DNA from: Bdellovibrionota bacterium
Lineage (GTDB): Bacteria > Bdellovibrionota_C > UBA2361 > OMII01
Reading direction: 5' to 3'
Assembly (NCBI GenBank): GCA_044356215.1
Contig: JBIKWQ010000036.1
Coordinates: forward strand, 1-31,751
Length of the DNA stretch: 31,751 nucleotides
Shown: positions 1-19,168 of the stretch, piece after piece
How the letters are laid out: every line of letters begins with the position of its first letter
Numbering within the stretch: position 1 is the first letter of the stretch
Made by a program: the position numbers and the translations under genes
The notes under the pieces: generated by a model
Seen by the model: the letters and a program-made list of their open reading frames with translations, nothing else
Told to the model about the DNA's origin: nothing
Databases searched by the model: none

Positions 1-172
1 CTCTCGGTAGTTCAACAAACTCACTACCTTTTTGGTTCAGCTTCCGCACCCGACGATACATGCTCGATTTATTCAACGCTCGCTCCTGGCAGAACATCTC
101 AAGGCTCTGCCCACTTCGCGAATACTCATCGAGTATTAAATCGCACTTCTCCTGGCTACGATACTTTCTCAT
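1..172 (-). CDS. tnpA: IS66 accessory protein TnpA-like (3' partial)
   Basis: Manual translation gives MRKYRSQEKCDLILDEYSRSGQSLEMFCQERALNKSSMYRRVRKLNQKGSEFVELPR..., matching the SGxSxxxFC...HTH...FV pattern of IS66 TnpA. RBS GGAGGAG at 187-181 (minus strand). Confidence 0.75.
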   Translation of the reverse strand, partial: MRKYRSQEKCDLILDEYSRSGQSLEMFCQERALNKSSMYRRVRKLNQKGSEFVELPR

Positions 173-279
173 CGCTTAATCTCCTCCAACTATAGCTCGC
201 GGCGTAAAATCACGGCGAAGCCACGCTTTTTAGCCGGTTCAGATTGCGTTGAATAGGGGGCTTAGTTACGGGCGCTTAC
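1..279 (-). mobile_element. Left end of an IS66-family insertion sequence, running off the window start
   Basis: The minus strand from 279 reads GTAAGCGCCCGTAACTAAGCCCCC, a GTAAGCG start typical of IS66 terminal inverted repeats. A TnpA-like ORF begins about 107 bp inside. Confidence 0.8.
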
Positions 280-480
280 CGTGAATCGCGATCTGGTTGC
301 TTAGGACGTTAGTGGCCATGACGGCACCATGCTCGGTAAACATATATGGTCGATAGCGACGTCCGCCTCTAGGTGTATTTGAAGTCGTAAATTGCGACCT
401 CAAACTTGCAACATGGAGTATCAACCGACCATCCGCCGGAGAAGTTGCTTGATCGATGGCAAGGAGATTACAATGGAGGC

Positions 481-510
481 CAGCAGGTGTCTAAGCGCCT
501 GCTGCTTTTA
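481..510 (+). terminator. Possible intrinsic terminator
   Basis: Stem CAGCAGGTG (481-489) / CGCCTGCTG (496-504) with one G-U pair, followed by CTTTTA. The U tract is short. Confidence 0.4.
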
Positions 511-534
511 ACTGTTGTCCTACGGCACGCGATC

Positions 535-1010
535 ATGAATTTGTTCGTACTATCTCAAATGCTCGTCGCCATGGCTTTCGTTTGCGACATCGTCTCATTT
601 CAGTTTCCGGATCGTAAAACCATTCTAGCATGTCTTGTGGCTTCAACAGGGCTGAGTTCCGCTCACTACTTTCTACTTTTGAGCCCGAGTGCGGGATGTT
701 TGATGCTTTTAGCCGCGCAAGGTTTTCAGTCGCCTATCTCAGCAAGCATCGGTGGTGGATGTGGTTCTTCATGGGACTGGCGACCGGGGTCCTATTCTTA
801 ACTTATCGGGTTCCAGCAAATTTGGTTGCATTTCACGCTTCTGTTCTTATGACATTTGCAAGTTGTCAGGATGGCGATAAAACTTTGCGGCTATGGATGA
901 TGGTGGGAGCTACGGCGTGGCTTACCAATATTTTGATTAGTTCGCCGACTGCTGTTAGACTCGAAATGTGCTTTCTCGGGAGCAATCTTTTTGGATTCTG
1001 GAGATGTATG
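535..1010 (+). pseudogene. YgjV-family inner membrane protein, frameshifted (3' end approximate)
   Basis: ATG at 535 gives MNLFVLSQMLVAMAFVCDIVSFQFPDRKTIL...HYFLL...LMLLAA. It continues in the frame of ORF 630..1469 as ARFSVAY...DKTLRLWMMVG...SPTAVRLEMCFLGSNLFGFWR. The joined protein resembles the YgjV family, with a frame break near 717. Confidence 0.7.
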
Positions 1011-2050
1011 GCTATAAATTTTTTAAATCTTCTGGAATTGTCAGGAAAACTATTTGGTCGCGATGGAATACAAGAAACTTGGGAGAGGATTCGACTTCCA
1101 CGAGCTCAGGAGCTTCTTTTGGAAACCTTAACAGGGCATGTAAAAGACATCGCGCTACCGACTGGACATGCCCCGAAATGGCCTCGTGATAGAGCGTCTG
1201 ACACGAGTTATCTGAACGGTTGGCATCGTAGATCTTTGTCCAATCATCGACCTGAAGCTAGTATGGGTCTGTCTGTGACATACCGTCTTTTTACTCCAGA
1301 CCTGGAATTTCGGATTTGGCAAGACCTTAACGGATACGGATTGAGTATTCGTGCTCGCGCTAAAGAGGCGCCGGCTTTAAATATGCACCCGTCAGCAATA
1401 GCAAAGAATTTATTTGCCCAACTAAAGTTTGCGGAAGGCATTCCAGATTTTGTTACGCTCAGGGCATAGCAATTTTCAGGACCGCTAGCGCAAGCGGTTT
1501 GGCTAAGTAAATACAGATCGAGGCTCCGAGGTCTTTGCGGGTGAGTGAATAGTGTGGCTTATAGAACAATTCAAGGCTGCAGTGCCTCCCTACGCTGGTG
1601 TTTCAGTCGGTCGCTGCTCTAAACTTTATCGCAGTACAATCCGAATTATTCGCATGGTTATTTCGCTTCAGCCTCTCTTCAAAGAGCAAGATACAGAGGC
1701 GCTGCGTGATATGATGAAAGTACGTTGTTTCTTGTTCCAGTGCGGAATGAGGTTCTCGCCAGATTACATTCCGATATCTGAAGGACTGAACCTCTGGTTG
1801 TCGACCGGTTATCCACCATCAGCTACGGCTGGCAGTTTGTTTCTTACGCACACTCCGAACGTCCCACACTCGTATATAAGCCGGTCTTACCCTAATCCAG
1901 AAATTTATCGACCTCCCCTTACCCTGCCTTTATCCCCCAGGGCTTCCCTGAACGAGCATCTGCAGGTTTCATCAGCGCAAATAACCCTGTCATACTAGGT
2001 AGTTATATTTTTGGAATTGCTTTTTCCATTTATGCAGCTAATATGGAGAA

Positions 2051-3187
2051 ATGATTTCCAGAATTCTAACTCTCTCAGGAACCTCGAGCTATTTTCTTTT
2101 TGGGCCGCGAGGGGTAGGCAAAACAAAGTTTCTCCTTACCCACTTCCCGAATGCCCTCTACATAGACTTACTAGAGGATGAAAAGTTCAACATGCTGATC
2201 AGCTCTACTCAAAGACTAGAGCAACTTATTAACGACTCGGGGAAGAAGCAGGTTGTAATAGATGAAGTGCAAAAGATACCCAGAATCCTCGATGAAGTGC
2301 ACAGGCTTATTGAGAAGAATAACATACAGTTCATCCTGACGGGCTCGAGCGCGCGAAAACTCAAACGTGCGGGAGTCAATCTACTTGCCGGAAGAGCCAT
2401 TACGAAATACATGTATCCACTCACCGCGCTCGAGCTGGGCGCTAAATATGACTTTTCTAAATCATTATTGAGTGGATTGCTCCCTTCTGCATACCTCGGG
2501 GAGAACACAAAACAATATTTATCCAGCTATGTTGCCACATACTTAAAAGAGGAGATTCAACAAGAGGGCCTTACAAGAAATCTAGGCGCGTTCTCAAGGT
2601 TCCTCGAAGCCGCGTCGCTCTCTCAAGCTCAGCAGATAAATATTTCGGACGTTGCCCGTCAGTGTTCCGTCGAACGCAAAACTGTAGAGCAGTATTTCAC
2701 TATCCTTGAAGACCTAATGCTCGCCACCCGGTTGCCGGTGTTTACAAAAAAGGCATCGCGCGACATGACACAACATCCAAAGTTTTTTCTTTTTGATGTA
2801 GGGGTATACCGCGCGCTTCGACCTAAGGGCCCACTTGATATGCCTGAAGAAATTGATGGGGCCGCCTTTGAGACACTTCTGCTTCAAGAGATGCGGGCAA
2901 TTAACGACTACTGTGATCTCGGCTATTATTTTTATTTTTGGAGGACGAAAACAAAACTTGAGGTGGATATAATAGCTTACGGAGAGAGAGGTATTCTAGC
3001 CTGCGAGGTGAAGCGTACCGCCCACGTAAGAAGAGAGGATCTAAGAGGGCTTCTCGCCTTTAAAGAGGATTACCCAACTTCAAAGCTATTCCTATTCTAC
3101 GGCGGAGAGAAACGCTACACAGAGAGCGGAATTGCATTTGTCCCGCTTAGGGAAGCGATGTCGGATATCAGAAATATCTTATCGTAG
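2051..3187 (+). CDS. ATP-binding protein, AAA_14 + DUF4143 family
   Basis: Walker A GPRGVGKT, Walker B VVIDEVQK, LTGSS, LAGRA, PKFFLFDVG, and C-terminal EVDII...CEVK (PD-(D/E)xK-like). 378 aa. Confidence 0.9.
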   Translation: MISRILTLSGTSSYFLFGPRGVGKTKFLLTHFPNALYIDLLEDEKFNMLISSTQRLEQLINDSGKKQVVIDEVQKIPRILDEVHRLIEKNNIQFILTGSSARKLKRAGVNLLAGRAITKYMYPLTALELGAKYDFSKSLLSGLLPSAYLGENTKQYLSSYVATYLKEEIQQEGLTRNLGAFSRFLEAASLSQAQQINISDVARQCSVERKTVEQYFTILEDLMLATRLPVFTKKASRDMTQHPKFFLFDVGVYRALRPKGPLDMPEEIDGAAFETLLLQEMRAINDYCDLGYYFYFWRTKTKLEVDIIAYGERGILACEVKRTAHVRREDLRGLLAFKEDYPTSKLFLFYGGEKRYTESGIAFVPLREAMSDIRNILS

Positions 3188-3549
3188 AAAGAGCTTTGGT
3201 GTTTTTTGGTGTTGGAGCCACCACAAGTTCAAGATTATTAGTAGCTCGCGGCTCGGCGTGGAGCCCACGGCATACCTGACTATTGCCCACATTCATTTGC
3301 GATGAATTCGTAGAGCTCAGTCAGATAGGCCAGTCTTTACCAGCCGCGCCACAGAGCGGCACAGCCAGGAGCCCTTAAGGGTCGCTTTGCTCGGAAGGCA
3401 GGGTCATATCGCCGAATCTCTAGGGAGGGTTTTTGCCTCGCTTCCCTAGGGGCTAATATGGCAGAGGTTAGAGCAACGCAGCGATTGCTCGCTATGAATA
3501 TACTTCTGTCACGGCCGTTTTGCTGATAGGGTGACCTCAGGAATTTATT

Positions 3550-4011
3550 ATGCAACAAAATAATCCACAAAGTGATTCGTCTGCTTCAGATTATGTCCTC
3601 CGTCTCTCTCGAGAAGTCGACGTTGTTAAAATTCAGGATCTAACTCAGGCGGTAGGTTGGGGTCGCCGTGGTGATGATAAGTGGAGAGAGATCCTTTCTA
3701 AGTCGGCTGTGGTCTGCTCGCTTTGGCACGGAGAGCGGCTAGTGGGGTTCGGTCGCATAGTTGAAGATGGGGTTATGAGCATGATGTATGACATCGCTGT
3801 TCACCCTGATTTGCAGCGTCAGGGTCTGGGATCTAAGATTATGCAGGCTCTTATTGATCAAGTTAAAGATAAAGGATACGTCTCAATAGGTCTCTTCGCC
3901 TGGGATAAGAACCCCGGAAATATTCCATTTTATGAGAAGTTTGAGTTTGTCGCGTCACACGGGATGGAGCTTGCGCGGTATATGAAGACCGAAGGGGGGA
4001 GTGAGGTTTAG
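3550..4011 (+). CDS. GNAT-family N-acetyltransferase
   Basis: LVGFGR, DIAVHPDLQRQGLGSKIM (acetyl-CoA motif A) and FYEKFEF. Confidence 0.9.
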   Translation: MQQNNPQSDSSASDYVLRLSREVDVVKIQDLTQAVGWGRRGDDKWREILSKSAVVCSLWHGERLVGFGRIVEDGVMSMMYDIAVHPDLQRQGLGSKIMQALIDQVKDKGYVSIGLFAWDKNPGNIPFYEKFEFVASHGMELARYMKTEGGSEV

Positions 4012-4023
4012 TCTTAATTATCA

Positions 4024-4743
4024 ATGGACAATCACTCGAAAAGTCACCGCTACGAATTATTTGGTGAGCAGTATGCGCGGCTTGGATTTTCTGACACATA
4101 CTACTTAGGATTTCGCGATATTCCCCAACTAATTAGCGAGTATCAGCTCTCAGTTGGCCTGGCGCTTGATCATGGTTGTGGCGGAGGACGTGCGACCAGA
4201 TTTCTTAAGCGGATAGGCTTCAGGACAATCGGTGTTGATAGAAATGCAGAGATGGTAAAACGAGCATTAGGGGAGGATCCTTCAGGGGATTATCGCACAG
4301 TGCCGGCAGATACCCTAGAATCTATCGCAAGCCAATCTATAGACCTAATTTTTCAAAGCTCTGTTCTCGAGGAGTATCAGTCCATCGATTCCATGATCAA
4401 AACCTTCCATGGGTTCCATCGAGTGTTACAGCCCGAGGGCAAGGTAATTATAGTTACGGCAAGTGAGGAATTGCCGAGAGGAGATTGGGCTTCCTTTTAT
4501 TACCCTGATCGACACCTTACGCCTCAAAGTGGCGAGCAGGTTCGCTGTGTCGTGCGTAACTCTGATATTGTTTTCAATGACTACTATTGGACAGATAGCG
4601 ATCTGCGCCGGGCATTTGACCGAAGTAGCTTTGAGGTCTTGCGGCTCCATAAGCCTCTGGCAAAAGGCGATGAGCCGTATGAGTGGCGAGATGAGACAAA
4701 ACAGCCGCCATGGTCTGTGTATTTGTTACGAAAGAGAGGGTAG
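4024..4743 (+). CDS. Class I SAM-dependent methyltransferase
   Basis: Motif I ALDHGCGGG, IGVD, IDLIF and HRVLQPEGKVII. Confidence 0.9.
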   Translation: MDNHSKSHRYELFGEQYARLGFSDTYYLGFRDIPQLISEYQLSVGLALDHGCGGGRATRFLKRIGFRTIGVDRNAEMVKRALGEDPSGDYRTVPADTLESIASQSIDLIFQSSVLEEYQSIDSMIKTFHGFHRVLQPEGKVIIVTASEELPRGDWASFYYPDRHLTPQSGEQVRCVVRNSDIVFNDYYWTDSDLRRAFDRSSFEVLRLHKPLAKGDEPYEWRDETKQPPWSVYLLRKRG

Positions 4744-4791
4744 TGAAATTATGCGTGACAGTGAGTGGAAATTCGCGGAAGGTAATCACTA

Positions 4792-5094
4792 ATGAGCATA
4801 AATGATTCTATAAGCTCCGCTGATAGTTTAAACCAAATAAGTGAGAGACTCGCCGCCCTCGAGAGAGAGCTAAAGTCGATACGAGAGCGTAATCTTCGAG
4901 TAGAGGCTAGTAAGGAGTGGGAGACGAGCCGCGCTAGGCTGTTTTCGATTACCGGTATTACTTATGTCACCATGCTATTAGTGTTTATGGTTTTGGGCTC
5001 CAGTAAGCCGTTTGCCGATGCCCTTGTACCGACTACAGGATTCTTCCTTTCTACGCTGTCGCTGTCGTTTCTGCGGGATCGGTTCGGGAAATAA
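4792..5094 (+). CDS. Small hypothetical membrane protein (coiled N-terminus, about 2 TM segments)
   Basis: RNLRVEASKEWETS followed by two hydrophobic segments. Co-directional with the two upstream genes. Confidence 0.75.
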   Translation: MSINDSISSADSLNQISERLAALERELKSIRERNLRVEASKEWETSRARLFSITGITYVTMLLVFMVLGSSKPFADALVPTTGFFLSTLSLSFLRDRFGK

Positions 5095-5114
5095 ATATTG
5101 GACCTTGAGTGTCG

Positions 5115-5287
5115 AGCCTGTGATTTTTTACCGCGTGGGGAACAGGCCGCGACTGGTACGCAGCCATTGCTTTGTGTCCTTTGCGTCCTTAGTGGTAAAA
5201 TTATTCCGCAGCTCTTATTATCTCCTGTAGTGTTTTTATTTTTCACCACAAAGGACCCAAAGGACGCGAAGGGGGGCAGGTGTGAGA
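5115..5287. repeat. Palindromic intergenic repeat, copy 1
   Basis: TGTGATTTTTTACCGC...GACTG..., then CTTTGTGTCCTTTGCGTCCTTAGTGGTAAAA (5170-5200), a spacer containing GCAGCTCTTATTATC, TTTTCACCACAAAGGACCCAAAGGACGCGAAG (to 5271), and GTGTGAGA. Confidence 0.95.
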
Positions 5288-5337
5288 ATATCATTATCTG
5301 TGTTGTCCAACACAAAAACTAACTCGGTCGCTCAAGT

Positions 5338-5843
5338 ATGATTAATCTATCAAAAGGACAACAAGGAGCTGTTGAGATCCGTCCAAGATTTCCGGCTAAT
5401 CATATCTCTATTGACCCACATGTATTTCAACTAATATCGGAAGTACAAGATCAGCTGCCGCGACACACCCGAATCATTATTACGCGTGGCTATGAAAGCG
5501 CACAGAGTGTTGTGGGTGTTTTAAGAACTATTGAACGTTTTGCTGGCTCTAAAATATTCAAGTTAATTTATCCAGTTCGCATAGCCGAGGTTCCAGAGAT
5601 CTTCCTGCCTAACGGTCACGACAAAGATGGTAGGCACGTTGATTTATCAATTATGGAGAATAATAGAATCATTAAATTACTCCCGTTTGGAGTGTTTACG
5701 CCGCTGCGCATAATAGAAAAAATGCCCAACTTCACGCTGATACGATCGGCCTAATCGAGGCAAAGTTCCGTCATGTTGGCGCGCGTTTCCACAGCAATCA
5801 ACTGGAGAGACTACAGATGCATGTCGATTTTGCCCCCCTGTAG
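5338..5843 (+). pseudogene. Hypothetical protein, possibly M15/VanX-like Zn peptidase fold, broken by a -1 frameshift in an A6 run
   Basis: ORF 5338..5754 carries IITRGYES and GHDKDGRHVDLSI. The -1 frame from 5721 reads NAQLHADTIGLIEAKFRHVGARFHSNQLERLQMHVDFAPL* (stop 5841-5843). A run at 5717-5722. Confidence 0.55.
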
Positions 5844-5881
5844 ATTAGCTAGAGGCGTGAAGCATTCAGGCTTGATCATCT

Positions 5882-6072
5882 AGCATGTGATTTTTTACCG
5901 CAGGTGGCGTAGCGGACGCGGGGGCGCGGAGAGCGACTGATACACAGCCCGCACTTTGTGTCCTTTGCGTCCTTAGTGGTAAAATAATCCTGCAGCTCTT
6001 ATTATCAATCTTAAAGTGATTTTATTTTTCACCACAAAGGACCCAAAGGACGCAAAGGGGAGAAGTGTGAGA
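5882..6072. repeat. Palindromic intergenic repeat, copy 2 (most complete)
   Basis: Same arms as copy 1. The 31-bp left arm (5954-5984) is identical. Right arm TTTTCACCACAAAGGACCCAAAGGACGCAAAG, ending GTGTGAGA. Confidence 0.95.
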
Positions 6073-6162
6073 GCAGCAATTATAGGTTTATCATCTCTTA
6101 AACCACTAGCCGACAGAGATAACTTTGATAGATTGAATAATCTGCAGGTGATTTGATGACCA

Positions 6163-6921
6163 CTACTTCACAGACATCACCTCTATACCCTTATCTTTGA
6201 AGCCCCGCTTTATAGTCTCAGGAGTATTGTCGTTTACGATTAAGACATCGACATCGCTTGAGGGGATAATTAAGTGAGGAGACGCGGCGTTTAGCTTTTC
6301 TGGTGAGGTGATTAACACTACCTCCGCCGCGCGAGAGCAGAACGCTCTCTTGATGCCGGCTTCCTCCCAGTCGCCCGTGGTGATTCCCGCTTCGGGATGC
6401 GCGCCTGTCGCGCCAAGGAAAAAAATGTCTAGATGAATCCTTTCAAGAGCGTTTAAAGTTTCCGCTCCAAGAGTCACCATAGAATGTTTGAAAAGTTTTC
6501 CACCAAGAAGAAGTACCTCAACAGAGTCGTGGTAACGTAGCTCTGAGGCGATCGTGGGGCTATGCGTAACGATGGTTATCTTTAGATCTCGGCGCAGATG
6601 ACGAATCAATTGAAGATTGGTAGTGCCTCCATCAATACCTATTACCTGTCCGGGTTCGATCATCTCAGCCGCGATTTTCGCGAGTTGATCTTTTGTCTCG
6701 GTCGATAGCGACTCCCTTGTTGTGTAATCGCCCACCGCGGGAGAGGTTGATATTGCTCCTCCGTGGACACGCTGAAGCAGTCCCTGCCTGGCAAGCTCGC
6801 GGAGGTCTCTTCGGATGGCATCCTCGGAAAGATCCCATTCATTACTTAGCTCGTTGACGGCAACCTGACCGTTTTTAAGAACTCGCTCAAGAATTAATTT
6901 GCGGCGCTGAGTGGTTAACAT
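6163..6921 (-). CDS. DeoR/GlpR-family transcriptional regulator
   Basis: N-terminal HTH SEDAIRRDLREL...RVHGGA and sensor domain IDGGTT, IVTHS. Start moved to ATG 6921 (MLTTQRR), which has a GGAG RBS just upstream. Confidence 0.93.
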   Translation of the reverse strand: MLTTQRRKLILERVLKNGQVAVNELSNEWDLSEDAIRRDLRELARQGLLQRVHGGAISTSPAVGDYTTRESLSTETKDQLAKIAAEMIEPGQVIGIDGGTTNLQLIRHLRRDLKITIVTHSPTIASELRYHDSVEVLLLGGKLFKHSMVTLGAETLNALERIHLDIFFLGATGAHPEAGITTGDWEEAGIKRAFCSRAAEVVLITSPEKLNAASPHLIIPSSDVDVLIVNDNTPETIKRGFKDKGIEVMSVK

Positions 6922-6945
6922 GAAAGCTCCAAGATGATATTGACC

Positions 6946-7031
6946 TGCATGAAACTGCATGATAATACACGAAACCGCAGTTTATGCAAAGCAGCAAAGC
7001 ATAAACTGCTATAATCATGATATTTCGTGCA
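6946..7031. promoter_or_regulatory. Divergent promoter region with candidate DeoR operator repeats and an extended -10
   Basis: Tandem 10-mers TGCATGAAAC / TGCATGATAA / TACACGAAAC (6946-6975). Perfect 11-bp IR GCAGTTTATGC (6977-6987) / GCATAAACTGC (6999-7009). TGCTATAAT (7007-7015). Inverted motif copy ATTTCGTGCA (7022-7031). Confidence 0.65.
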
Positions 7032-7048
7032 ATTGGGAGTGTAAGGAA

Positions 7049-7432
7049 ATGAAGAGTTTGATGGTTCTGATAGCAGGCCCTTACAGAGGAGGGACGGGTG
7101 ACGACCCGTTTCTAATGAGACGCAATCTGGATTTCCTTGAGGATGTGGCACTTCAGGTGTGGCGTAAGGGCCATATTCCAGTAATCGGAGAGTGGCTTGC
7201 TCTGCCGCTCATGCATCGAGCGGGATCGCGATCTGTTGGCGACCCAATATACAAGGAGATGGCATACCCGGTGGCGCACAGAGTTCTCGAGAGGTGCGAA
7301 GCGGTGCTTCGGGTTGGTGGGCCATCGCAGGGCGCTGACCAGGATGTTGAGTTAGCGAAAAAATTGGGACTAAAGATCTTTTTCGACGCGGAAGATGTGC
7401 CTTTAGTACAGGGAAGTGGTGATAACCTATGA
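7049..7432 (+). CDS. DUF4406-like / nucleoside deoxyribosyltransferase-fold small protein
   Basis: MKSLMVLIAGPYRGGT...GHIPVIGEWLALP...CEAVLRVGGPSQGADQDV. ATG 7049 is preceded by AAGGA. ATGA overlap with the Nudix gene. Confidence 0.75.
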   Translation: MKSLMVLIAGPYRGGTGDDPFLMRRNLDFLEDVALQVWRKGHIPVIGEWLALPLMHRAGSRSVGDPIYKEMAYPVAHRVLERCEAVLRVGGPSQGADQDVELAKKLGLKIFFDAEDVPLVQGSGDNL

Positions 7433-8037
7433 ACCCGAATATAGAGATCCTAGAAACTAAGATCCTATCCGATAACTGGTATATCTTGAAAAAAGTCGCG
7501 TTTCGTCAGCGAGATAAATCAGGAAATTGGACTATCCAGAATCGCGAGGTATATGACAGGGGCAACGGGGCTACTATCTTGTTATACAACGTGGAGAATC
7601 GAACGGTGATCTTAACGCGACAATTTCGCCTCCCAACTTTTGTTAATGGCAACGAGAGTGGCATGTTAATAGAAACGTGCGCGGGATTGCTCGATGACAA
7701 CGATCCAAAAACCGCGATCTTACGCGAGACCGAGGAGGAAACCGGATTTAAAATTGAGAAAGTCAAAAAGATCTTTGAGGCCTACATGTCACCGGGATCG
7801 GTTACCGAGGTGCTACACTTTTATGTGGGTGAATATTCAAACGGCATGAGAGTTTCAGCAGGTGGCGGGACGGGAGCGGACGAGCAGATCGAGGTGCTGG
7901 AGCTTAAGTTTGATACTGCCTATCGCATGATAGAAAGTGGCGAAATAAAGGACGGAAAGACTATTATGCTTCTGCAGTATGCGCGTCTAAATGGGCTTTG
8001 TAACGAGCGCGGCGAGCGCGGAGGAGACTGCCGCTAA
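7429..8037 (+). CDS. nudK: GDP-mannose pyrophosphatase NudK/YffH-type Nudix hydrolase
   Basis: LSDNWYILKK, REVYDRGNGATILLY, Nudix box AGLLD...AILRETEEETG, YMSPGSVTE and DGKTIMLLQY. Confidence 0.9.
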   Translation: MNPNIEILETKILSDNWYILKKVAFRQRDKSGNWTIQNREVYDRGNGATILLYNVENRTVILTRQFRLPTFVNGNESGMLIETCAGLLDDNDPKTAILRETEEETGFKIEKVKKIFEAYMSPGSVTEVLHFYVGEYSNGMRVSAGGGTGADEQIEVLELKFDTAYRMIESGEIKDGKTIMLLQYARLNGLCNERGERGGDCR

Positions 8038-8160
8038 GTTACAGTCCTCACTTTGTGTCCTTTGCGTCCTTAGTGGTAAAATAATCACGCAGCTCTTATT
8101 ATCGTTCCTGAAGTGTTTTTATTTTTCACCACAAGGACCCGAAGGGTGAGGAGTGTGAGA
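8005..8160. repeat. Palindromic intergenic repeat, copy 3 (right arm shortened)
   Basis: Identical left arm at 8051-8081. Right arm TTTTCACCACAAGGACCCGAAGGG lacks one 9-bp unit plus one A. Ends GTGTGAGA at 8160. Confidence 0.93.
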
Positions 8161-8194
8161 AATTACGTCTGTATTTTTACAGGCTCTGGGCTGC

Positions 8195-9631
8195 TCACTC
8201 CGCCTCAAACAAAAGCTGCTGCTTCTTGGTGTTTATAGCTACTGGGGTTCCAGCTGGATAAGACCCAGTGAAACATGCGTCGCAGAATTTGCCGGGTTCG
8301 GATCCTACAGCACGATAGAGCCCCTCTCTGGATAGATACGCTAATGAATCGACTCCAATAAACTTGGCTATATCCTCAACACTGCTGCGAGAGGCGATTA
8401 GCTCCTGCTTGTCGGGGGTGTCGATACCGTAGTAACACGGGTCAGTGGTCGGAGGAGAGGAGATGCGCATGTGGATCTCTTTGGCTCCAGCTTGTCTTAG
8501 CATCGCTACTAACTTTCGACTCGTGGTTCCGCGCACTATGGAGTCATCAACTACAACTATCGATTTGTCCTTTAATACAGCCGGATTCGGATTAAGCTTA
8601 ATCTTTACACCGAAATCTCTGATGGACTGTTGCGGCTCAATAAATGTTCGTCCGACATAGTGATTTCGAACTAGTCCCATCTCAAATGGTATGCGTGATG
8701 CCTCGGCGTATCCGATGGCCGCCGCGACTCCTGAGTCAGGTACAGCGATCACGACATCAGCTTTAACCGGAGTCTCTCTCGCCAGCTCGGCTCCCATATT
8801 CTTGCGGACCTGATACACGTTCTTACCGAATACATTGGAGTCTGGACGAGCGAAATAAACGAACTCGAATATGCACGGAGCAGTTCTTGAGAAGCCAAAT
8901 GGGAAGTAGCTGCGAGTGGAACCATCACGCAGAACCTCAATTACCTCTCCTGGCTCGACATCCCTTATGTATGTGGCGCCGATCAGATCAAAGGCGCAGG
9001 TCTCAGACGCGAAAACGATTCCCTCATTAAGTTTTCCCATCGCCAGAGGTCGTAGGCCGTACCGATCGCGGGCGGCTATCAAGCGATCCTCAAATAAAAT
9101 AAGGAGTGAGAAAGCCCCATGAAGCCTCGTTAGGGCCGCCATAACATTCTCTGAGCGCGGGGCGTCCTTATCTGAGAGAGCCAAAAGATGCAGAACTATC
9201 TCGGTATCTGATGTCGAGCCGAAGATCGACCCCTGGTCGATTAGCTCCTTTCTAAGTTGCTCGGTATTAGTCAGGTTTCCGTTGTGCGCTACGGCGACGC
9301 ACCCTAGAGAGATATCAGCGACGAACGGCTGGACGTTGGCTAGCTTGTTGCCTCCGGCAGTGGTGTATCGTACATGACCGATCGCTACCTTGCCGGGTAG
9401 TTTATTAAAATCGAAGTCGCTAAATACCTCAGCGACTAGCCCGAGACCCTTGTGCACATGAAAGTGCGGTCTGTCGTCGCCATTGCTCTTAGAGGTAACA
9501 ACACCCGCTCCCTCCTGACCGCGGTGCTGCTGAGAGTAGAGACCTAAGTAAGTCAGGTTAGCGGCTTCAGCGTGGTTCCACACCGCCATTAACCCGCACT
9601 CATCGTGAAATTTATCTGGGCGAAGCTCCAT
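8195..9631 (-). CDS. purF: Amidophosphoribosyltransferase
   Basis: Propeptide then ECG, QHRGQE, GHVRY, HNGNL, PRPP motif VVVDDSIVRGTTS, and Fe-S cysteines (PCIFE, PCYYG, CDAC). Confidence 0.98.
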   Translation of the reverse strand: MELRPDKFHDECGLMAVWNHAEAANLTYLGLYSQQHRGQEGAGVVTSKSNGDDRPHFHVHKGLGLVAEVFSDFDFNKLPGKVAIGHVRYTTAGGNKLANVQPFVADISLGCVAVAHNGNLTNTEQLRKELIDQGSIFGSTSDTEIVLHLLALSDKDAPRSENVMAALTRLHGAFSLLILFEDRLIAARDRYGLRPLAMGKLNEGIVFASETCAFDLIGATYIRDVEPGEVIEVLRDGSTRSYFPFGFSRTAPCIFEFVYFARPDSNVFGKNVYQVRKNMGAELARETPVKADVVIAVPDSGVAAAIGYAEASRIPFEMGLVRNHYVGRTFIEPQQSIRDFGVKIKLNPNPAVLKDKSIVVVDDSIVRGTTSRKLVAMLRQAGAKEIHMRISSPPTTDPCYYGIDTPDKQELIASRSSVEDIAKFIGVDSLAYLSREGLYRAVGSEPGKFCDACFTGSYPAGTPVAINTKKQQLLFEAE

Positions 9632-9639
9632 ATAAGGTC

Positions 9640-11919
9640 CTATTCCTCAAAAATATGATCTAAGCCACCAAACCATGCCTTGTAAGCGGCATCAGCTTGA
9701 ATAGACGCGACTCCAGTGACCGATATCGTTGATCCTCCAACAACACCTTCGCCCGAGATAGCTACCGACTCAGTTTTCAGCAGATCTTTAATCGCCGCTA
9801 GGGAACTCTTGTCGCAGCTAACGATAAAACGAGCGCCACTTTCAGCAAATAAAGCTAAGTCTCGGCGCGCTGTGTCGTGAGTGAGCTTGAGGCTAACTCC
9901 CTTTGGCGCTGAATAGTCAGAGAAGCAACACTCAGCTAGCGCCACACCGAGCCCGCCTTGTGATAGATCGTGGCATGATCGGATAAGCCTCTTCGCTATA
10001 AGCTTTCTTATGGTATCGCAAGTTCTCTTTTCTAGTTCGTAGTTTAACTCTGGCAAAGCTCCACGCTCTATTCCGTGGACCTCGGCTAAATACGAGCTAC
10101 CACCTATCTCTGAATCCCTGGTCTCTCCGATTAAAAGAACAACATCGCCATCATTCTTGAACCCTGCCGATACAGCGAGAGATGCGTCATCAAGGAGTCC
10201 TACAACGGCTAGTGTCGGAGTTGGTTGAATTCCCTGTCCCTGAGTTTGGTTGTAAAGACTTACATTACCGCTAACAACTGGAACGTCAAAAGCTCGGGCG
10301 GCTTCACCAAGTCCAGCGATGCTGTTGGCTATCTGCCACATCGTCTCTGGAACCTCTGGGCTAGGCATATTTAAGCAATCCGATATACCGATCGGCGTAG
10401 CGCCTGAACAAGCGATGTTTCTTAAGCTTTCAGCGAGTGAATGCGCTGCACCGAGGCGAGCATCGATCACGCAGAAGCGCGAATTGCAATCTAGCGATAT
10501 CGCTATTCCTTTCTCCTTTCCGTTAGGTCCCATCACTCTGACAAGACCTGAGTCTGAGCCAGGATGAACAACAGTAGCCGCGCGTACAGTTGAATCGTAC
10601 TGATTGTAAACAGCGTGACGTGAACAGTTATTGGCTGAGCCTAGTAGATCAATCCAAGTTTGGCCGAGATCTTTGGGCTCTGGCACAGAGGCTGGATCGA
10701 TCGGCGACATCAGCAACGGGTCGCTTGGAGCCTTTGTTGGCCAATTGTATTCAGGAACGGCGCTGGTAAGTAGGTGCGCTGGCATCTTAGATACGAGCTC
10801 GTCGTGCCAGTAAAGCTCAACATCCTCGCCAGCGATTACTTCGCCGATCGCCACAGCATCAAGCTCCCAACGGGTGAAGATCTCAATTAGCTTATTCTCT
10901 TCACCTGCTTTAACTATAAATAGCATGCGTTCCTGAGACTCGGAGAGCATGATCTCATAGGGATTCATCCCTGTTTCTCGCTGCGGAACTCGATCTAGGT
11001 GAAGACGCACGCCGTTTTTACCGCGATCAGCCATCTCAAAAGATGAGCTTGTTAGTCCAGCGGCGCCCATATCCTGCACGCCCACCACGCAACCACTCTT
11101 AAAAGCCTCAAGACACGCTTCAAGTAGTAGCTTTTCCTGGAAAGGATCTCCTACTTGAACAGTTGGGCGCTTAGCCTCTGAGTTATCACCAAATTCCTCA
11201 GAGGACATGCTAGCACCGTGGATTCCGTCTCGTCCGGTCTTCGAGCCGACATAGAGCACAACGTTACCAACTCCGCTCGCGGTTCCGAGGAAGACCTCGT
11301 CCTGGTTCACTATTCCGAGCGCGAACGCATTTACGAGGCAGTTTCCGTTAAACGAACGATGAAACGCGAGCTCTCCGCCAACAGTTGGGATTCCCATGCA
11401 GTTGCCGTAGAATCCGATTCCGTTAACAGCTCTGCGAAGAAGATAGCGACTCTTTGGAAGAGCTGGATCTCCGAAGCGTAATGAATTTAAGAGAGCGACA
11501 GGGCGCGCCCCCATTGTGAAAACATCGCGTAAAATTCCACCTACGCCTGTAGCTGCTCCTTGAAACGGCTCGATAAATGACGGGTGGTTGTGGCTCTCTA
11601 CTTTAAATACGGCTGCTTGATTGTCGCCTATGTCGACCACACAAGCATTCTCTCCAGGTCCAACTATTACTCGTGGTCCCTTAGTGGGGAGAGTTTTTAG
11701 GTGGATTTTGGTGCTCTTGTATGAGCAGTGCTCGGAGAATAGGGCGGAAGCGATTCCTAGCTCAACCATATTGATCGGTCGACCGAGCGCTTTGATGATC
11801 GCCTCAAACTCACCCGCCTTTAATCCGTGGGAGCGTGCGTCCTCGGGTGATGCGTGTCGCATCCATGGAGAGGATGACGGTTGTGAAGGTTTATGTGTGG
11901 CTGGCTGAGACGCTGTCAT
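9640..11919 (-). CDS. purL: Phosphoribosylformylglycinamidine synthase subunit PurL (small type)
   Basis: SEHCSYKS, KVESHNHPS, DMGAAGL, LSESQERM and SGNVSLYN. 759 aa with no glutaminase domain. Confidence 0.98.
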   Translation of the reverse strand: MTASQPATHKPSQPSSSPWMRHASPEDARSHGLKAGEFEAIIKALGRPINMVELGIASALFSEHCSYKSTKIHLKTLPTKGPRVIVGPGENACVVDIGDNQAAVFKVESHNHPSFIEPFQGAATGVGGILRDVFTMGARPVALLNSLRFGDPALPKSRYLLRRAVNGIGFYGNCMGIPTVGGELAFHRSFNGNCLVNAFALGIVNQDEVFLGTASGVGNVVLYVGSKTGRDGIHGASMSSEEFGDNSEAKRPTVQVGDPFQEKLLLEACLEAFKSGCVVGVQDMGAAGLTSSSFEMADRGKNGVRLHLDRVPQRETGMNPYEIMLSESQERMLFIVKAGEENKLIEIFTRWELDAVAIGEVIAGEDVELYWHDELVSKMPAHLLTSAVPEYNWPTKAPSDPLLMSPIDPASVPEPKDLGQTWIDLLGSANNCSRHAVYNQYDSTVRAATVVHPGSDSGLVRVMGPNGKEKGIAISLDCNSRFCVIDARLGAAHSLAESLRNIACSGATPIGISDCLNMPSPEVPETMWQIANSIAGLGEAARAFDVPVVSGNVSLYNQTQGQGIQPTPTLAVVGLLDDASLAVSAGFKNDGDVVLLIGETRDSEIGGSSYLAEVHGIERGALPELNYELEKRTCDTIRKLIAKRLIRSCHDLSQGGLGVALAECCFSDYSAPKGVSLKLTHDTARRDLALFAESGARFIVSCDKSSLAAIKDLLKTESVAISGEGVVGGSTISVTGVASIQADAAYKAWFGGLDHIFEE

Positions 11920-12518
11920 AGAAAAGATTCGAGGCTCCAGGTAATCAACGACGTCTGGAATTCAGGCGTCGAGCGGGTTTTATAAAGCAGTTTTGTAAAA
12001 AATGCCTTCGCTAAAGTGTATAACGTCTAATAATTACTCTCAATCTTAAGGGGGTTTCAGTGTAAAAAATTTGATGGATAGAAACCTTTGGTCTTAGAGG
12101 TTTGTGATCAATTCAAGAGGCTTGATGATGCGTGTAAAGGAGGCGGATTGGGAGATATAAATGATTAGATACAATAAGTTATGCTGCCAGTGTTAATCTT
12201 GAAGAGAGATTTTTACAGGCGTCCAAACGAAGAGAACCTAGTTTGATTCTGTTAGAGAAAATCACCACGGAAAGGATCTCTTTAAAAAGTGTGTAACGTA
12301 AAGGCGAGATAGATATCTGCCGACAGTACAAATAGTCCCGGAGCGCTAAATCATTTGAGGCACTTGTGACATCAAACTCATAGAAGCCGAAAGTGTATCG
12401 GTGCCTCAAGGTTAAAAAGTGTCGGGTCTTGGGTAGTTGTGGCACTAGCTTGGGTCGTCTACCGTGAATGCATAGGGCCTCAAGCGTGTTAACGAGATAA
12501 CGTTAAGGAGAAAGTTCC

Positions 12519-14447
12519 ATGAGCGAAGATTTTCGTAAGCTAATTGAAGAGGATCGCGAGACTCGAAAGAAGTCCTCATGGAAAGGGACGATGATGCAGT
12601 ATCTCGAGTTAGTTCGAGAGAATCCCAGCATTCATAAACTGGCGCACAAGAGGCTCTACGACATGATTAACGACCGAGGTATGGTCGAGGTTGATCTAGA
12701 GCAGAATCCGCGCATGAAGCGGATCTTCAAAGGAGAGAAGCTAAAGGTATTTAATTTCTTCTCTGACGAATTCTTCGGTATGGAGAAGACGATCAATCAG
12801 ATCGTCCGCTATTTTCACTCAGCATCGCTGAAAGGTGAGGAGAGTCGTCAGGTGCTCTATCTTGTGGGGCCAGTAGGTTCCGGAAAGAGCTCTTTAGTAG
12901 ACAGGTTAAAAAAGGGCCTGGAGTACCTGCCCCCCATTCACGCTATTGAAAATTGCCCGATGTTTGAGGAGCCTCTGCACTTAATTCCAAGGCATCTTCG
13001 TAAAGAGTTTTCAAAGATGCTTGGCGTTGAGATCGAGGGAGATCTCTGTCCAGTATGCCGCTATAGGTTAAAAGAGGAGTTCCAAGGAAAGTGGGAGGAT
13101 GTCCCTGTTCGTACCTACGACTTTAGTATCAGAGCTAAGCGTGGAGTCGGAGTGGTTCCACCTGTGGATCCGAACAATCAAGATACCAGTGTGCTAATCG
13201 GCGGTGAGGATATCTCTAAGCTAGATATGTACTCTGAGGGTGACCCACGCGTGTTGGATTTAACTGGAGCGTTAAACGTAGGAAACCGCGGAATGGTTGA
13301 GTTTATCGAGGTTTTCAAGAACGAGACTGAATACCTGCACGCGATGATCACAGCGACTCAGGAGAAATCGATCCCAGCTCCTGGTCGTCACGGAATGATC
13401 TATGTTGATACATGTATCGTGGCGCATTCTAACGAGGCGGAGTGGAAAAAGTTTAAGAGTGATCACACAAACGAGGCGATCCTTGACCGTATCGTAACCG
13501 TAAAGGTGCCTTATAACTTGCGGCTCTCAGAGGAGGTGAAGATCTACAAGAAGATCATTCGCCAATCACAGTTCACGGCTGATATAGCCCCTCACACGAT
13601 AGAGATCGCTTCGATGTTCGCGATCCTGTCGCGACTTGAGCCGACTAATAAATGTGATCTGATGACTAAGCTAAAGCTCTACAACGGTGAGGAAGTTGTA
13701 GAGAAGGGCAAGACAAAGCGCATCGATGTAGTCGAGCTGCGAGAAGAGGCGAAGAGTGAGGGCATGAACGGAATATCTACCCGTTTCATTATGAAGGCTC
13801 TCGATAACGCGCTCTCAGATAACATAGAGCAGAACGCGATCCATCCGATCTCGGTCAGAGAGGCTCTCGTGCATATGGTTAAGGAGGCTGATTTCGCCGA
13901 TGACGTGAAGAAACGTTATCTAGAGTTCCTCCAGGATACCCTGCACAAGGAGTACCTAGAGGTTCTTGAGAAAGAGATTACTAAGGCGTTTGTTTACTCG
14001 TATCAGGAACAGGCGGAGTCGCTCTTCCAGAATTACCTCGATCACGCTGAGTCCTATGTAACTAAGAAAAAGTTTAAGGATCGCAGCACAGGTGAGGTTC
14101 TTGAGCCCGATGAGGGCTTTATGAAATCGATCGAGGAGCAGATAGCCATTATCGGCACCGCGTGTGACGGTTTTAGGCAGGAAGTCATAGCGTTTCTCTG
14201 GTCAGCGGGGCGTAGAGGCGAGAAGGTGAGCTATGAGAGCTATGAGCCACTTAAAGAGGCGATCGAGAAAAAGCTCATGGCGAGCGTTCGTGATGTCTCG
14301 CGAATTATCACTAAAGCTAGAACCCGTGATGATGATCAGCACAAGAAGTATGGACGCATGGTCGAGCAGTTGATCAGGAACGGGTATCCAGCGAGTTGTG
14401 TTGATGTGATTCTGAAATACGCTGCTAATAATCTGTGGAAGGATTAA
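12519..14447 (+). CDS. prkA: PrkA/YeaG-family AAA+ serine protein kinase
   Basis: Walker A GPVGSGKS, CPMFEEPLHL, NRGMVEFIE, AHSNEAEW and GISTRF. RBS AAGGAG. Confidence 0.95.
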   Translation: MSEDFRKLIEEDRETRKKSSWKGTMMQYLELVRENPSIHKLAHKRLYDMINDRGMVEVDLEQNPRMKRIFKGEKLKVFNFFSDEFFGMEKTINQIVRYFHSASLKGEESRQVLYLVGPVGSGKSSLVDRLKKGLEYLPPIHAIENCPMFEEPLHLIPRHLRKEFSKMLGVEIEGDLCPVCRYRLKEEFQGKWEDVPVRTYDFSIRAKRGVGVVPPVDPNNQDTSVLIGGEDISKLDMYSEGDPRVLDLTGALNVGNRGMVEFIEVFKNETEYLHAMITATQEKSIPAPGRHGMIYVDTCIVAHSNEAEWKKFKSDHTNEAILDRIVTVKVPYNLRLSEEVKIYKKIIRQSQFTADIAPHTIEIASMFAILSRLEPTNKCDLMTKLKLYNGEEVVEKGKTKRIDVVELREEAKSEGMNGISTRFIMKALDNALSDNIEQNAIHPISVREALVHMVKEADFADDVKKRYLEFLQDTLHKEYLEVLEKEITKAFVYSYQEQAESLFQNYLDHAESYVTKKKFKDRSTGEVLEPDEGFMKSIEEQIAIIGTACDGFRQEVIAFLWSAGRRGEKVSYESYEPLKEAIEKKLMASVRDVSRIITKARTRDDDQHKKYGRMVEQLIRNGYPASCVDVILKYAANNLWKD

Positions 14448-14478
14448 GGCTGCTTTCTAAGGAAGGTGTAGCTGATTC

Positions 14479-15714
14479 ATGACAACTATTTTTAGACCGT
14501 ACACATCTTCGTCGCAGCGCTCTGACCGGAGCGCTCGCGACCGGATGAGGCATAGGCGTAAGATTCAGGATTCAATCCGCGATAATATCGGTGACATCCT
14601 CGCTGAGGAATCGATCATCGGCCGTGATAAAGACAAGATCATTAAAGTTCCGATCCGATCAGTTAAGGAGTATCGGTTTATTTACGGCGATAACGCTCCT
14701 GGAGTAGCGCAGGGAAATGGCGAGCAGAAACCTGGAGATGTCGTAGATCCAGGAAAAGAGGAGCCCGGACAGGGTAAGGCTGGAGACCAGGGTGGAGTCG
14801 ACGCCTTTGAGACCGATATCACGCTAGAAGAGCTAATAGCGATAATGTTTGAGGACCTCGAGCTCCCGGAGCTTGAGCGGAAAGCCCTTAAGGAGGTCGT
14901 CTCAGAGGACGCCAGAAAGCGTAAAGGTCATCGAAAAGCTGGTATACGTCCGCGGTTAGATAAGCGCGCCACGGCACGCAACAGGATCCGTCGCAAACTC
15001 TCTGTGCGAGGTAGTAGGGGAGAGGAGTTGGATGAGGATGGCGAGGAGAAGCGCTTTCCGTTTCACGAGGACGATATGAGTTATTTTCATATCGCTCCAA
15101 CGACCAGAGAGGCTTCTAACGCTGTGGTGTTCTGTATTATGGATACATCAGGTTCGATGGGAACTGTGAAGAAGTACCTAGCACGCAGCTTCTATTTCTT
15201 GCTCTATCAGTTTGTCAGGCAGAAATACGCTAATGTTGAAGTGGTCTTTATCGCGCATCATACAGAGGCTAAGGAGGTATCTGAGAGCGATTTCTTCCAC
15301 AAGGTAGAATCCGGTGGAACATATATCTCTTCAGGCTATCGCAAGGCGCTAGATATTATTAACAGTAGGTATCATCCGTCGTTGTGGAACATCTACGCGT
15401 TTCACTGCTCTGATGGTGATAATTTTTATTCTGATAACGAGCGGGCACTGCAAGCTGCTGAGGAGTTGTGTCAGGTATGCAACCTCTTTGGCTACGGCGA
15501 GATTAAGCCGGCAGGGAGCGCCTACTACAGCGGAAGCATGTTAGAGGTATTCGGTCAGATCCAGGCTGAGAACTTCCACATGATTACGATCGAGAAAAAA
15601 GAGGATCTTTGGGAGGGATTCCGAAGTTTCTTAATGAAGGATAAGGCTAGTGGGGTATCAGCGCATGGCAAGGTATTTGGCCAGAGCGAGGGTGCCTCGG
15701 CGGCCGCACCGTGA
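14479..15714 (+). CDS. yeaH: YeaH/YhbH (DUF444) vWA-like protein
   Basis: DLELPEL, MIDAS-like MDTSGSM, FIAHH, ESGGT and SDGDN. Located directly after prkA. Confidence 0.93.
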   Translation: MTTIFRPYTSSSQRSDRSARDRMRHRRKIQDSIRDNIGDILAEESIIGRDKDKIIKVPIRSVKEYRFIYGDNAPGVAQGNGEQKPGDVVDPGKEEPGQGKAGDQGGVDAFETDITLEELIAIMFEDLELPELERKALKEVVSEDARKRKGHRKAGIRPRLDKRATARNRIRRKLSVRGSRGEELDEDGEEKRFPFHEDDMSYFHIAPTTREASNAVVFCIMDTSGSMGTVKKYLARSFYFLLYQFVRQKYANVEVVFIAHHTEAKEVSESDFFHKVESGGTYISSGYRKALDIINSRYHPSLWNIYAFHCSDGDNFYSDNERALQAAEELCQVCNLFGYGEIKPAGSAYYSGSMLEVFGQIQAENFHMITIEKKEDLWEGFRSFLMKDKASGVSAHGKVFGQSEGASAAAP

Positions 15715-15720
15715 GAAGGT

Positions 15721-18430: not shown

Positions 18431-19162
18431 CTATTCCACCAGCGATATCTCAGCTCGCCTATTGAGCTGTCTTCCCGCTGCGGTGCGATTAGTCGCCACC
18501 GGCTTCTTCGCGGAGAAGCTCTCAATCTTAATCTGGTCGAGCGCTATACCTCTTCCAGCTAGGTACGCCGCGACGGAGTCTGCGCGCGCCTGAGCGAGCT
18601 TATCGTTATAATCAGGCCTTCCTGTGTCGTCGGTATGCCCAGCCACTAAGATTCGCGAGAATTTTGGGTTCTTTTTTAGCGCTTCAGCCGCAGCTTCAAG
18701 GCCTGAATAGGCGCCTAGCCGGAGATTTGTTTGATCCTCATCGAAGAACACCGTGTAGACACCTCCGATGGGATCAGAACAGAGTGAAGAATCCAGCTTG
18801 TTTTGAATCTTTAGAAGTGAGTTGTGATTGGCGGCGGCTTGAACTTTTAGCGCTGCTAGCTGTCTGTTCTGTTCTAATTGAACACCTTCCTCTAAATCAT
18901 ACCCCATGCCCATTAGAAGTCCGGCAGCCGCTCCGAATCCGGAGCCAACTGCTGTGCCGTTGCCTGGGGTGCTTACTTGATTTCCGACGACCGCGCCAGC
19001 GCCGGCTCCCCAGCCCGCTCCTAAAAGCGCTCCGGCGACGGTTTTGTCTGGTCCGGCCTGTGGATTCGAGCAGGCTAGGAAACCTGTGGTCGTTAGAATG
19101 AAAAGTATAATCCTAAAAAGAGCAGTTGCGGGTCTGAAAACGGCGCATCTGCTCAAAATCAC
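18431..19162 (-). CDS. OmpA-family lipoprotein with glycine zipper (YiaD-like); start uncertain
   Basis: Lipobox FLAC after a hydrophobic stretch, GALLGAGWGAGAGAVVG zipper, and OmpA C-terminal GHTDDTG...NRRAEI. Signal-peptide length favours GTG 19162 or TTG 19156 over 19369. Confidence 0.85.
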   Translation of the reverse strand: MILSRCAVFRPATALFRIILFILTTTGFLACSNPQAGPDKTVAGALLGAGWGAGAGAVVGNQVSTPGNGTAVGSGFGAAAGLLMGMGYDLEEGVQLEQNRQLAALKVQAAANHNSLLKIQNKLDSSLCSDPIGGVYTVFFDEDQTNLRLGAYSGLEAAAEALKKNPKFSRILVAGHTDDTGRPDYNDKLAQARADSVAAYLAGRGIALDQIKIESFSAKKPVATNRTAAGRQLNRRAEISLVE

Positions 19163-19168
19163 TTTGGC

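Follow-up and report, generated by a model that had tools for sequence, protein, structure and literature searches.

We analyzed a 31,751-nt contig of a Bdellovibrionota bacterium (JBIKWQ010000036.1 of assembly GCA_044356215.1, forward strand), referred to below as the window, which carries three palindromic repeat units at the borders of unrelated gene modules beside the core gene purF. A first-pass annotation had read these units either as a family resembling repetitive extragenic palindromes (REPs), bacterial interspersed mosaic elements (BIMEs) or miniature inverted-repeat transposable elements (MITEs), or as the recombination sites of a gene-capture array. Our data favor the first reading: the units are probably REP/BIME-like hairpins at the 3′ ends of genes in a variable island, and as direct repeats they allow general recombination to remove or add whole modules. 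They do not appear to be dedicated recombination sites, and a dedicated cassette system is very unlikely. The three units form one repeat family, fold into stable hairpins and follow the 3′ ends of genes; in a closely related strain one entire module is missing, and a single hybrid of its two flanking units is found at the junction.

The existence of three same-strand copies was confirmed by exact matching. The 31-nt arm CTTTGTGTCCTTTGCGTCCTTAGTGGTAAAA occurs in the window at 5170, 5954 and 8051, always on the forward strand, and never in 100 shuffles; the 15-nt motif GCAGCTCTTATTATC of the adjoining spacer lies at 5208, 5992 and 8089, likewise with no match in shuffled sequence. A repeat search of the window grouped 5160-5265, 5944-6049 and 8041-8146 as a single direct-repeat family, and detected an extra left piece common to copies 1 and 2 (5104-5134 and 5871-5901). 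By blastn, copies 1 and 2 are 86.5% identical over 141 nt, copies 2 and 3 89.6% over 106 nt, and copies 1 and 3 91.7% over 96 nt. The unit is about 185-200 nt long and consists of one arm in alternating orientation, in the order degenerate inverted arm, arm, A+T-rich spacer and inverted arm; the left piece as a whole (TGTGATTTTTTACCGC and then a G+C-rich stretch) represents a decayed inverted arm. Neither the repeat search nor a scan for arm matches found further arms in the window, in agreement with the earlier remark that no copy was noticed in the 23 kb of core genes.

All three units read on the forward strand and all are closed by GTGTGAGA. Copy 1 (5104-5287) lies downstream of the stop of a 100-aa open reading frame (ORF) at 5094, and comprises the left piece with the degenerate inverted arm (5104-5169), the arm (5170-5200), the spacer motif (5208-5222), the inverted arm (5240-5267) and the terminal GTGTGAGA (5280-5287). 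Copy 2 (5871-6072) occupies the gap between a converging 138-aa ORF and DeoR, with the arm at 5954-5984, the spacer motif at 5992-6006, the inverted arm at 6026-6053 and GTGTGAGA at 6065-6072. Copy 3 (approximately 8005-8160) lies between the converging nudK and purF genes, its left part covering the last ~12 codons of nudK; the arm is at 8051-8081, the spacer motif at 8089-8103, the inverted arm at 8123-8151 and GTGTGAGA at 8153-8160. The right ends thus stand as first annotated, whereas copies 1 and 2 extend leftward to 5104 and 5871, not to 5115 and 5882. An inverted arm had been assigned to every copy; copies 1 and 2 retain it intact, whereas that of copy 3 is degenerate (CACCACAAGGACCCGAAGGGTGAGG). 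When folded as RNA, copies 1, 2 and 3 reach minimum free energies of -47.9, -45.0 and -43.9 kcal/mol (z -4.7 to -5.5), and none of 200 shuffles was as stable. Despite its degenerate inverted arm, copy 3 retains the hairpin fold through different pairings. A simple terminator scan did not flag the window units.

A second arrangement of this locus is present in a 105-kb metagenome contig, Ga0214921_10000255, which is 95-97% identical to the window. It aligns to window positions 1933-3708, to 3988-6049 (97%) and then directly to 8041-15326 (95%), the last two alignments overlapping by 105 nt. The sister contig contains copy 1, the 138-aa ORF, one further repeat and purF, and lacks the module composed of the DeoR regulator, a 127-aa ORF and NudK. 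The missing period (6038-8134) measures 2097 bp from copy 2 to copy 3, its exact ends being ambiguous within the repeat. The capture-array reading had predicted such gain or loss of a whole module between strains; general recombination predicts the same. The remaining repeat is a hybrid. Its left side resembles copy 2 (flank, arm and CAATCTTAAAGTG) and its right side resembles copy 3 (degenerate inverted arm and purF side), with the switch located within 6016-6037 of copy 2, equivalent to 8113-8134 of copy 3 on the forward strand, in or next to the invariant block TTTTATTTTTCACCACAA. A TTATTCC stretch in the hybrid is of the copy-1 type. All three copies thus contribute to the mosaic, a sign of gene conversion among them; the hybrid also carries private substitutions. 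Blocks of 38, 15 and 18 nt are identical between copies 2 and 3. The sister contig is also missing 279 bp of the GNAT gene (window 3709-3987), a plain in-frame deletion that leaves a 61-codon remnant. Since the sister lineage is evidently losing island DNA, loss of the DeoR-NudK module in that lineage is favored over its gain.

Direct repeats with identical blocks are open to general recombination, and a simple mechanism can be proposed on this basis. Repeats of 100-200 bp with long identical blocks would provide a substrate for the general recombination of the cell, through homologous exchange or RecA-independent exchange between direct repeats. Such exchange would convert the copies against each other and would delete or integrate the DNA between them; one event of this kind may have removed the 2.1-kb DeoR-NudK module or, in reverse, added it. 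The units themselves are probably kept as RNA or DNA hairpins at 3′ ends, where they could act as a transcript end or a barrier. A comparable situation is described for the microcin H47 island of E. coli, a direct-repeat-bounded island that is excised without a site-specific recombinase of its own and for which host RecA-independent direct-repeat recombination is proposed in that report (PMC5426353). Both loci are small, bounded by direct repeats and devoid of an encoded recombinase. Unlike the present locus, the microcin H47 locus is a single island whose repeats do not belong to a dispersed hairpin family, and its excision was shown by experiment, whereas here we infer it from two assembled arrangements. 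Repeat-bounded loss of a module is ordinary biology, cleanly displayed at this locus, and repeats of this kind can drive the precise gain or loss of whole modules between strains without a visible recombinase.

Several observations weigh against this interpretation. Three blocks, namely the 31-nt arm, the 15-nt spacer motif and the 18-nt TTTTATTTTTCACCACAA, do not vary among the five copies of the two strains, whereas elsewhere the unit differs by 8-14%; the invariant blocks could mark a protein-binding core rather than the outcome of conversion. The switch in the hybrid lies in the 18-nt block, not in the 38-nt block that is the longest identity between copies 2 and 3. The three copies are also more orderly than random scatter would suggest, each standing directly after a gene, in the same orientation and with the common GTGTGAGA end, although a shared orientation of three copies is expected by chance 1 time in 4. 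The full unit, with arm, GCAGCTCTTATTATC spacer and inverted arm, is found only at the three window sites, and a freely dispersing element should recur elsewhere. The module looks foreign, which fits gain as well as loss. Finally, both arrangements rest on assemblies, and no read or contig was seen to bridge a unit.

The genome-wide distribution of the arm, counted by blastn and regular expressions in the 3.24-Mb assembly of 131 contigs, supports a dispersed intergenic family. We found 190 arms on 70 of the 131 contigs: 173 of a C-type (CTCTG...), 15 of a T-type with the spelling of the window, and 2 mixed. In total, 28 of the 190 lie in open frames of at least 120 codons, compared with 88% of the genome in such frames. 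These figures agree with a REP/BIME/MITE-like family, and many scattered copies are what the first-pass annotation had itself set against a capture array. Arms lie within 150 nt of 41 of the 262 contig ends, which accounts for many of the assembly breaks. The C-type arms form the inner hairpin of a MITE of 161-163 bp with YAGGGCGTCGCAGTG ends. Among its 51 full copies, a 9-bp target duplication (at most one mismatch) is present in 35, versus 0 of 51 in a shifted control, and the burst amounts to about 90 copies in the genome. The CAGGG-type ends and the 9-bp duplication resemble the ISAs1 family, to which this MITE may belong. A candidate gene carried inside a split MITE on contig C95 was rejected, as the locus consists of a truncated MITE and one complete MITE.

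The relationship between the window units and this MITE was evident from an nhmmer profile built from five copies (three from the window and two from the sister strain). The window units score 183-205 bits (envelopes 5109-5287, 5876-6072 and 7978-8164), other T-type hairpins on contigs C47 and C96 score 44-49 bits, and the MITE hairpins score approximately 20-34 bits. In the last case the left part of the unit aligns to the hairpin core of the MITE, and the two have the same core. They differ in gene context. Of ten T-type loci, four are in convergent and four in tandem gaps, none is in a divergent one, and two were called 'genic' by a crude ORF caller, one of the latter being copy 1, which sits between two forward-strand genes under a spurious ORF. 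Among all arm loci placeable between two genes, 28 of 71 are divergent, as is often the case for MITE loci. Thus, the T-type units behave like 3′-end REP-type hairpins and the MITE copies do not. REPs are described as located mostly 3′ of genes, in the gaps between unidirectional or convergent ORFs (PMC3733652). Elsewhere in the genome, T-type loci adjoin toxin-antitoxin, Fic, PIN and AAA_14-DUF4143 genes. Contig C47 has a local T-type trio of its own, in which the duplicated segments comprise the whole hairpin plus about 270 nt beyond it; their boundaries do not coincide with the switch point of the window hybrid. The window trio probably represents a local subfamily of a dispersed palindromic intergenic family, in the rarer T-type spelling as opposed to the C-type spelling of the MITE, with T-type loci placed after gene 3′ ends, in tandem or convergent gaps of accessory regions.

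The units share much with the REP, BIME and REP doublet (REPIN) elements of Proteobacteria: short palindromic arms that alternate into composite units, high copy number, an intergenic location after gene 3′ ends and large hairpins. The same palindromic arm in alternating orientation with set linkers is likewise the design of a BIME mosaic. They nevertheless lack the conserved unpaired GTAG or CGTC end tag of REPs. Copies 1 and 2 each have a single GTAG, at positions that do not correspond, and copy 3 has none, consistent with the earlier note that this tag is lacking; CGTC falls within the paired arm, and the TGTC spelling that many arms from other phyla have does not contain it. Nor is there a RAYT gene flanked by the window arms, the RAYT-like genes of this genome carrying GTAGCCGGGCTAC-type REPs. 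REP families are mostly lineage-specific, whereas the window arm is nearly unchanged across many phyla. Unlike the 161-163-bp MITE, the window units lack terminal inverted repeats and a target duplication and have no copy elsewhere. The units therefore fail two REP features (end tag and associated RAYT) and the MITE features (terminal inverted repeats, target duplication and dispersed whole copies), and we file them as palindromic extragenic repeats outside any named family.

The kinship with a MITE raises the question of whether the units moved by themselves. They could be non-autonomous elements, similar to MITEs or palindrome-associated transposable elements (PATEs), that transposed locally into three gaps between modules already in place, the array-like look being incidental. 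We consider this unlikely, while recognizing that a number of features point in its direction. The arm also occurs in a proven MITE of this genome, every copy has the defined right end GTGTGAGA, and TGTGA is present at both ends of copies 1 and 2. Copy 3 also overlaps and replaces the natural end of nudK in the manner of an insertion: the NudK model spans residues 1-190 of 202, and the tail NERGERGGDCR is encoded by the repeat unit. Local transposition is, however, at odds with the unit ends, where no terminal inverted repeats or target duplication are evident (boundaries known from only 2-3 copies), with the lack of copies of the unit elsewhere in the genome or genus, and with the two strains, which show no insertion polymorphism of a unit and both possess copy 1.

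The search for machinery bears on the alternative of a dedicated cassette system, in which a module and its hairpin unit would be mobile together and site-specific exchange would take place at an attC-like core, with the enzyme encoded elsewhere, for example by an AAA_14-DUF4143 or Y1 HUH gene. A Pfam scan of 30 window ORFs detected no integrase, recombinase or transposase, in line with the first reading of the sequence, to which no recombinase was visible. The attC core pair RYYYAAC...GTTRRRY is absent from 4900-8400 and neither motif occurs inside any unit, which upholds the claim that attC ends are lacking. Elsewhere in the genome there are five Y1_Tnp matches. A multi-copy 321-aa Y1 HUH (RAYT-like) gene is flanked by GTAGCCGGGCTAC hairpins and not by the window arm; a 213-aa Y1_Tnp-like gene (C53:13043-13684) has ~100-nt repeats in tandem downstream of it, every one containing a G+C-rich hairpin; and a 314-aa Y1_Tnp gene has no arm of this family within 400 nt on either side. 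A RAYT partner for the window arms was accordingly rejected, the RAYT-like genes of the genome belonging to other REP families. A DUF559 nuclease was also discarded as a partner, the one match being sub-threshold (18.8 bits against a cut-off of 20.6) and inside a 1743-aa frame. As a separate observation, the 321-aa gene sits in an element of ~1.3 kb with copies at C37:34642-35607 and C9:44659-45624 and on C60, C12, C126, C101 and C80, the genome contains 18 GTAGCCGGGCTAC-type motifs, and a 60%-identical homolog of the protein is encoded directly 3′ of purF in the relative G001.

The remaining candidate enzyme belongs to the AAA_14-DUF4143 group, of which the genome contains about 28 divergent paralogs, with identities of 21-41% to the window copy. 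Among the PD-(D/E)XK families, DUF4143 is recorded as one of unknown function (PMC3424549). These genes are found within 2 kb of three of the seven T-type regions: the window copy 1.9 kb left of copy 1, the gene at C47:6350-7531 flanked by the T-type trio, and the gene at C45:58544-59863, 1.1 kb from the C45 arms. The other 25 of the ~28 genes have no arm within 3 kb. The association is confounded, because accessory islands are rich in both the genes and the T-type arms. Three of the 28 genes stand between long direct repeats of 83-207 nt, and the paralogs look like a selfish or defense-type gene family.

The locus resembles integron attC cassettes in several respects. In both cases a gene is followed by an imperfect palindrome, the units form a same-orientation array beside a fixed point, and presence or absence is module-wise and leaves one hybrid site. 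The common right end of the units, the switch in or next to the invariant 18-nt block, the foreignness of a module absent from 123 other genomes of the class, and the PD-(D/E)XK-type genes near T-type regions would all suit a cassette system. On the other hand, the window locus has no IntI, attI, Pc or R″/R′ core pair; one module consists of three genes on both strands with their own regulator; and the unit is confined to one species, being absent from 34 other genomes of the genus and present in one same-species metagenome contig, so that no community pool of cassettes can be recognized. Duplication boundaries differ in the C47 trio, the three-way mosaic of the hybrid is typical of homologous conversion, and only one event is known. 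Apart from module-wise polymorphism, for which homologous recombination would account equally well, the units fail every integron feature tested. Given the absence of a recombinase among the window ORFs scanned and of attC sites, the other REPs of the RAYT-like genes and the restriction of the unit, the gene-capture array proposed at the outset is not supported, and we regard a cassette system as a very doubtful explanation. An equally improbable variant holds that modules bearing one unit integrate and excise at an invariant TTTTATTTTTCACCAC core, beside purF and at T-type sites like that on C47, under the action of a trans-encoded enzyme, perhaps one of the ~28 AAA_14-DUF4143 ATPase-nuclease paralogs. 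If that were true, the cross-phylum arm would serve as the recognition element for a hairpin-directed recombination system that is widespread and undescribed. As it stands, the locus shows that small hairpin repeats can make an ordinary variable island resemble a cassette array, which calls for caution with cassette- or integron-like predictions made from sequence alone.

Because both arrangements were obtained by assembly, the polymorphism itself had to be weighed as a possible artefact, with the module either misplaced in the metagenome-assembled genome or collapsed out of the sister contig by jumps between identical arms. We compared public contigs (Logan) of four sequencing runs, X3, X4, X5 and X7, with window positions 1-12000, parts without coverage being uninformative. 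The contigs of these runs break at arms, and no listed piece bridges a unit. Where covered, these contigs list neither a joint that skips ~2097 nt, as expected for the sister form, nor a joint that goes back ~2097 nt, as expected for a circle. One joint that goes back 106 nt, from 6058 to 5953 (X3 contig, 34 nt on the short side), is indistinguishable from another hairpin locus. Two X5 contigs depart from the window sequence left of 6027, and one over 7773-8044 continues for 322 nt unlike the window, which hints that the module may stand in another context. The frequent breaks at arms, here as at the contig ends of the genome, and the 38-nt block identical between copies 2 and 3 would permit an artefact of this type. 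We nonetheless judge it very improbable, since both unique junctions, between the module and the right half of copy 2 and between the nudK tail and the left half of copy 3, contain the locus-specific unit, the sister hybrid shows substitutions private to it, and the module is found at ~99% identity in runs that also contain neighboring window DNA.

Insertion with a long target duplication, reportedly described by Nobusato et al. in 2000, would have each incoming module duplicate a pre-existing unit, so that the array grew from one hairpin; it similarly places foreign genes between direct repeats of tens to hundreds of bases, as in the 3 of 28 AAA_14-DUF4143 genes here, yet it is highly improbable, because neither the right half of copy 2, where the inverted arm is intact, nor the left flank of copy 3 resembles the sister hybrid in strains that differ by only 3-5%. 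For the DeoR-NudK module, a recent insertion of this kind is ruled out: near-identical copies would be expected, and the flanking copies are too unlike the single unit of the sister strain.

Returning to the arm as part of a dispersed hairpin family, we found that its pattern has 185 matches in this genome, 4-8 (nearly all T-type) in four other genomes of the genus and none in 30 of the 34 others. The C-type MITE burst is therefore species-specific, with T-type arms as a low-copy variant. In the four other genomes the T-type arms are mostly solitary, local direct repeats being present at 3 of 17 loci. The full window unit was not found in any of the 34 other genus genomes, six of which gave arm-length matches only, and a 38-nt arm-plus-spacer pattern retrieved a single record from a metagenome contig collection, of the same species and with two copies. 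Beyond the genus, the pattern GTCCTYTGNGTCCTYWGTGGTRAAA has at least 93 loci in a species-genome collection, where less than one chance match is expected in 596 Gb by a rough estimate. These loci span Bacteroides, Acidobacteriota, Gemmatimonadota, Planctomycetota, Verrucomicrobiota, Chloroflexota, several proteobacterial classes and others, and at most of the loci among the matches listed the arm pairs into a hairpin whose loop varies. The arm itself has a periodic structure of 9-nt units. A search of window 3100-8400 against Rfam at E values up to 10 returned no family, the only matches being sub-threshold chance similarities of the microRNA type; the unit had no match to plasmids or phages by blastn in distant mode; and the literature searched by sequence and by cross-phylum palindromic intergenic repeats yielded no paper on the arm sequence. 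The local repeat trio is thus tied to a hairpin arm found in almost the same form in many phyla, and the conservation of this arm is the more interesting question.

The units lie in an island that is variable throughout. The purL-purF pair is conserved in all 13 genus relatives examined, with everything 3′ of purF differing, also among the relatives themselves, and none of 10 window proteins encoded left of purF adjoins purF in these 13 genomes. The first core gene is purF itself (8195-9631, reverse strand). Adjacent to copy 3, the third module consists of a DeoR/GlpR-family regulator (6163-6960, reverse strand), the 127-aa ORF (7049-7432, forward strand), with a weak, sub-threshold Pfam match to DUF7768, and a NudK-type GDP-mannose pyrophosphatase (7429-8037, forward strand) recognized by an NCBIfam equivalog model at 248 bits against a cut-off of 234. 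The 127-aa ORF has no match in 123 other genomes of the class, and a DeoR and NUDIX pair is also present, at ~68% identity, on a Paraburkholderia megaplasmid; on these grounds the module looks acquired. A comparison of NudK with viral contigs found no relative. The second module (5338-5845, forward strand) is the 138-aa ORF, which continues in another frame to ~5843 past a frameshift at an A-run near 5716. Contigs from runs X5 and X7 have one extra A there, so that the frameshift is either an assembly error or a strain-specific pseudogene; no Pfam family matched this ORF. The first module (3550-5094, forward strand) contains a GNAT acetyltransferase (3550-4011), a methyltransferase (4024-4743) and the 100-aa ORF (4792-5094). 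The order of these modules is as originally described, whereas the labels 'DUF4406' and 'peptidase-like' found no confirmation in Pfam.

On the left side of the island lies the AAA_14-DUF4143 gene of the window (2051-3187, forward strand), which encodes an ATPase/PD-(D/E)XK-type protein. Left of this gene the sister contig (L158:1-5027 versus window 1-1932) consists of DNA that maps to C97 and C9 of this genome, making the left border of the island a second breakpoint. Genes of C97 also neighbor purF in the relative G006. Two other repeats were noted between the AAA_14-DUF4143 and GNAT genes: a 66-nt dispersed repeat (3306-3371) with 82% copies on six other contigs of the genome and a shorter 85% copy on a seventh, and a ~29-nt palindrome, CTAGGGAGGG...CCCTAGGGG (3422-3450), present at 89-97% identity in at least six other genus genomes. 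On the core side, an ordinary-looking three-gene set of PrkA, DUF444 and SpoVR (12519-17178) adjoins purL. Further along, an inverted-repeat element of ~190 bp (19104-19294) has arms that are 92% complementary; a close copy of it in the sister contig, which has about 50 matches across the genome, many of them at contig ends, marks the left edge of the island in that contig.

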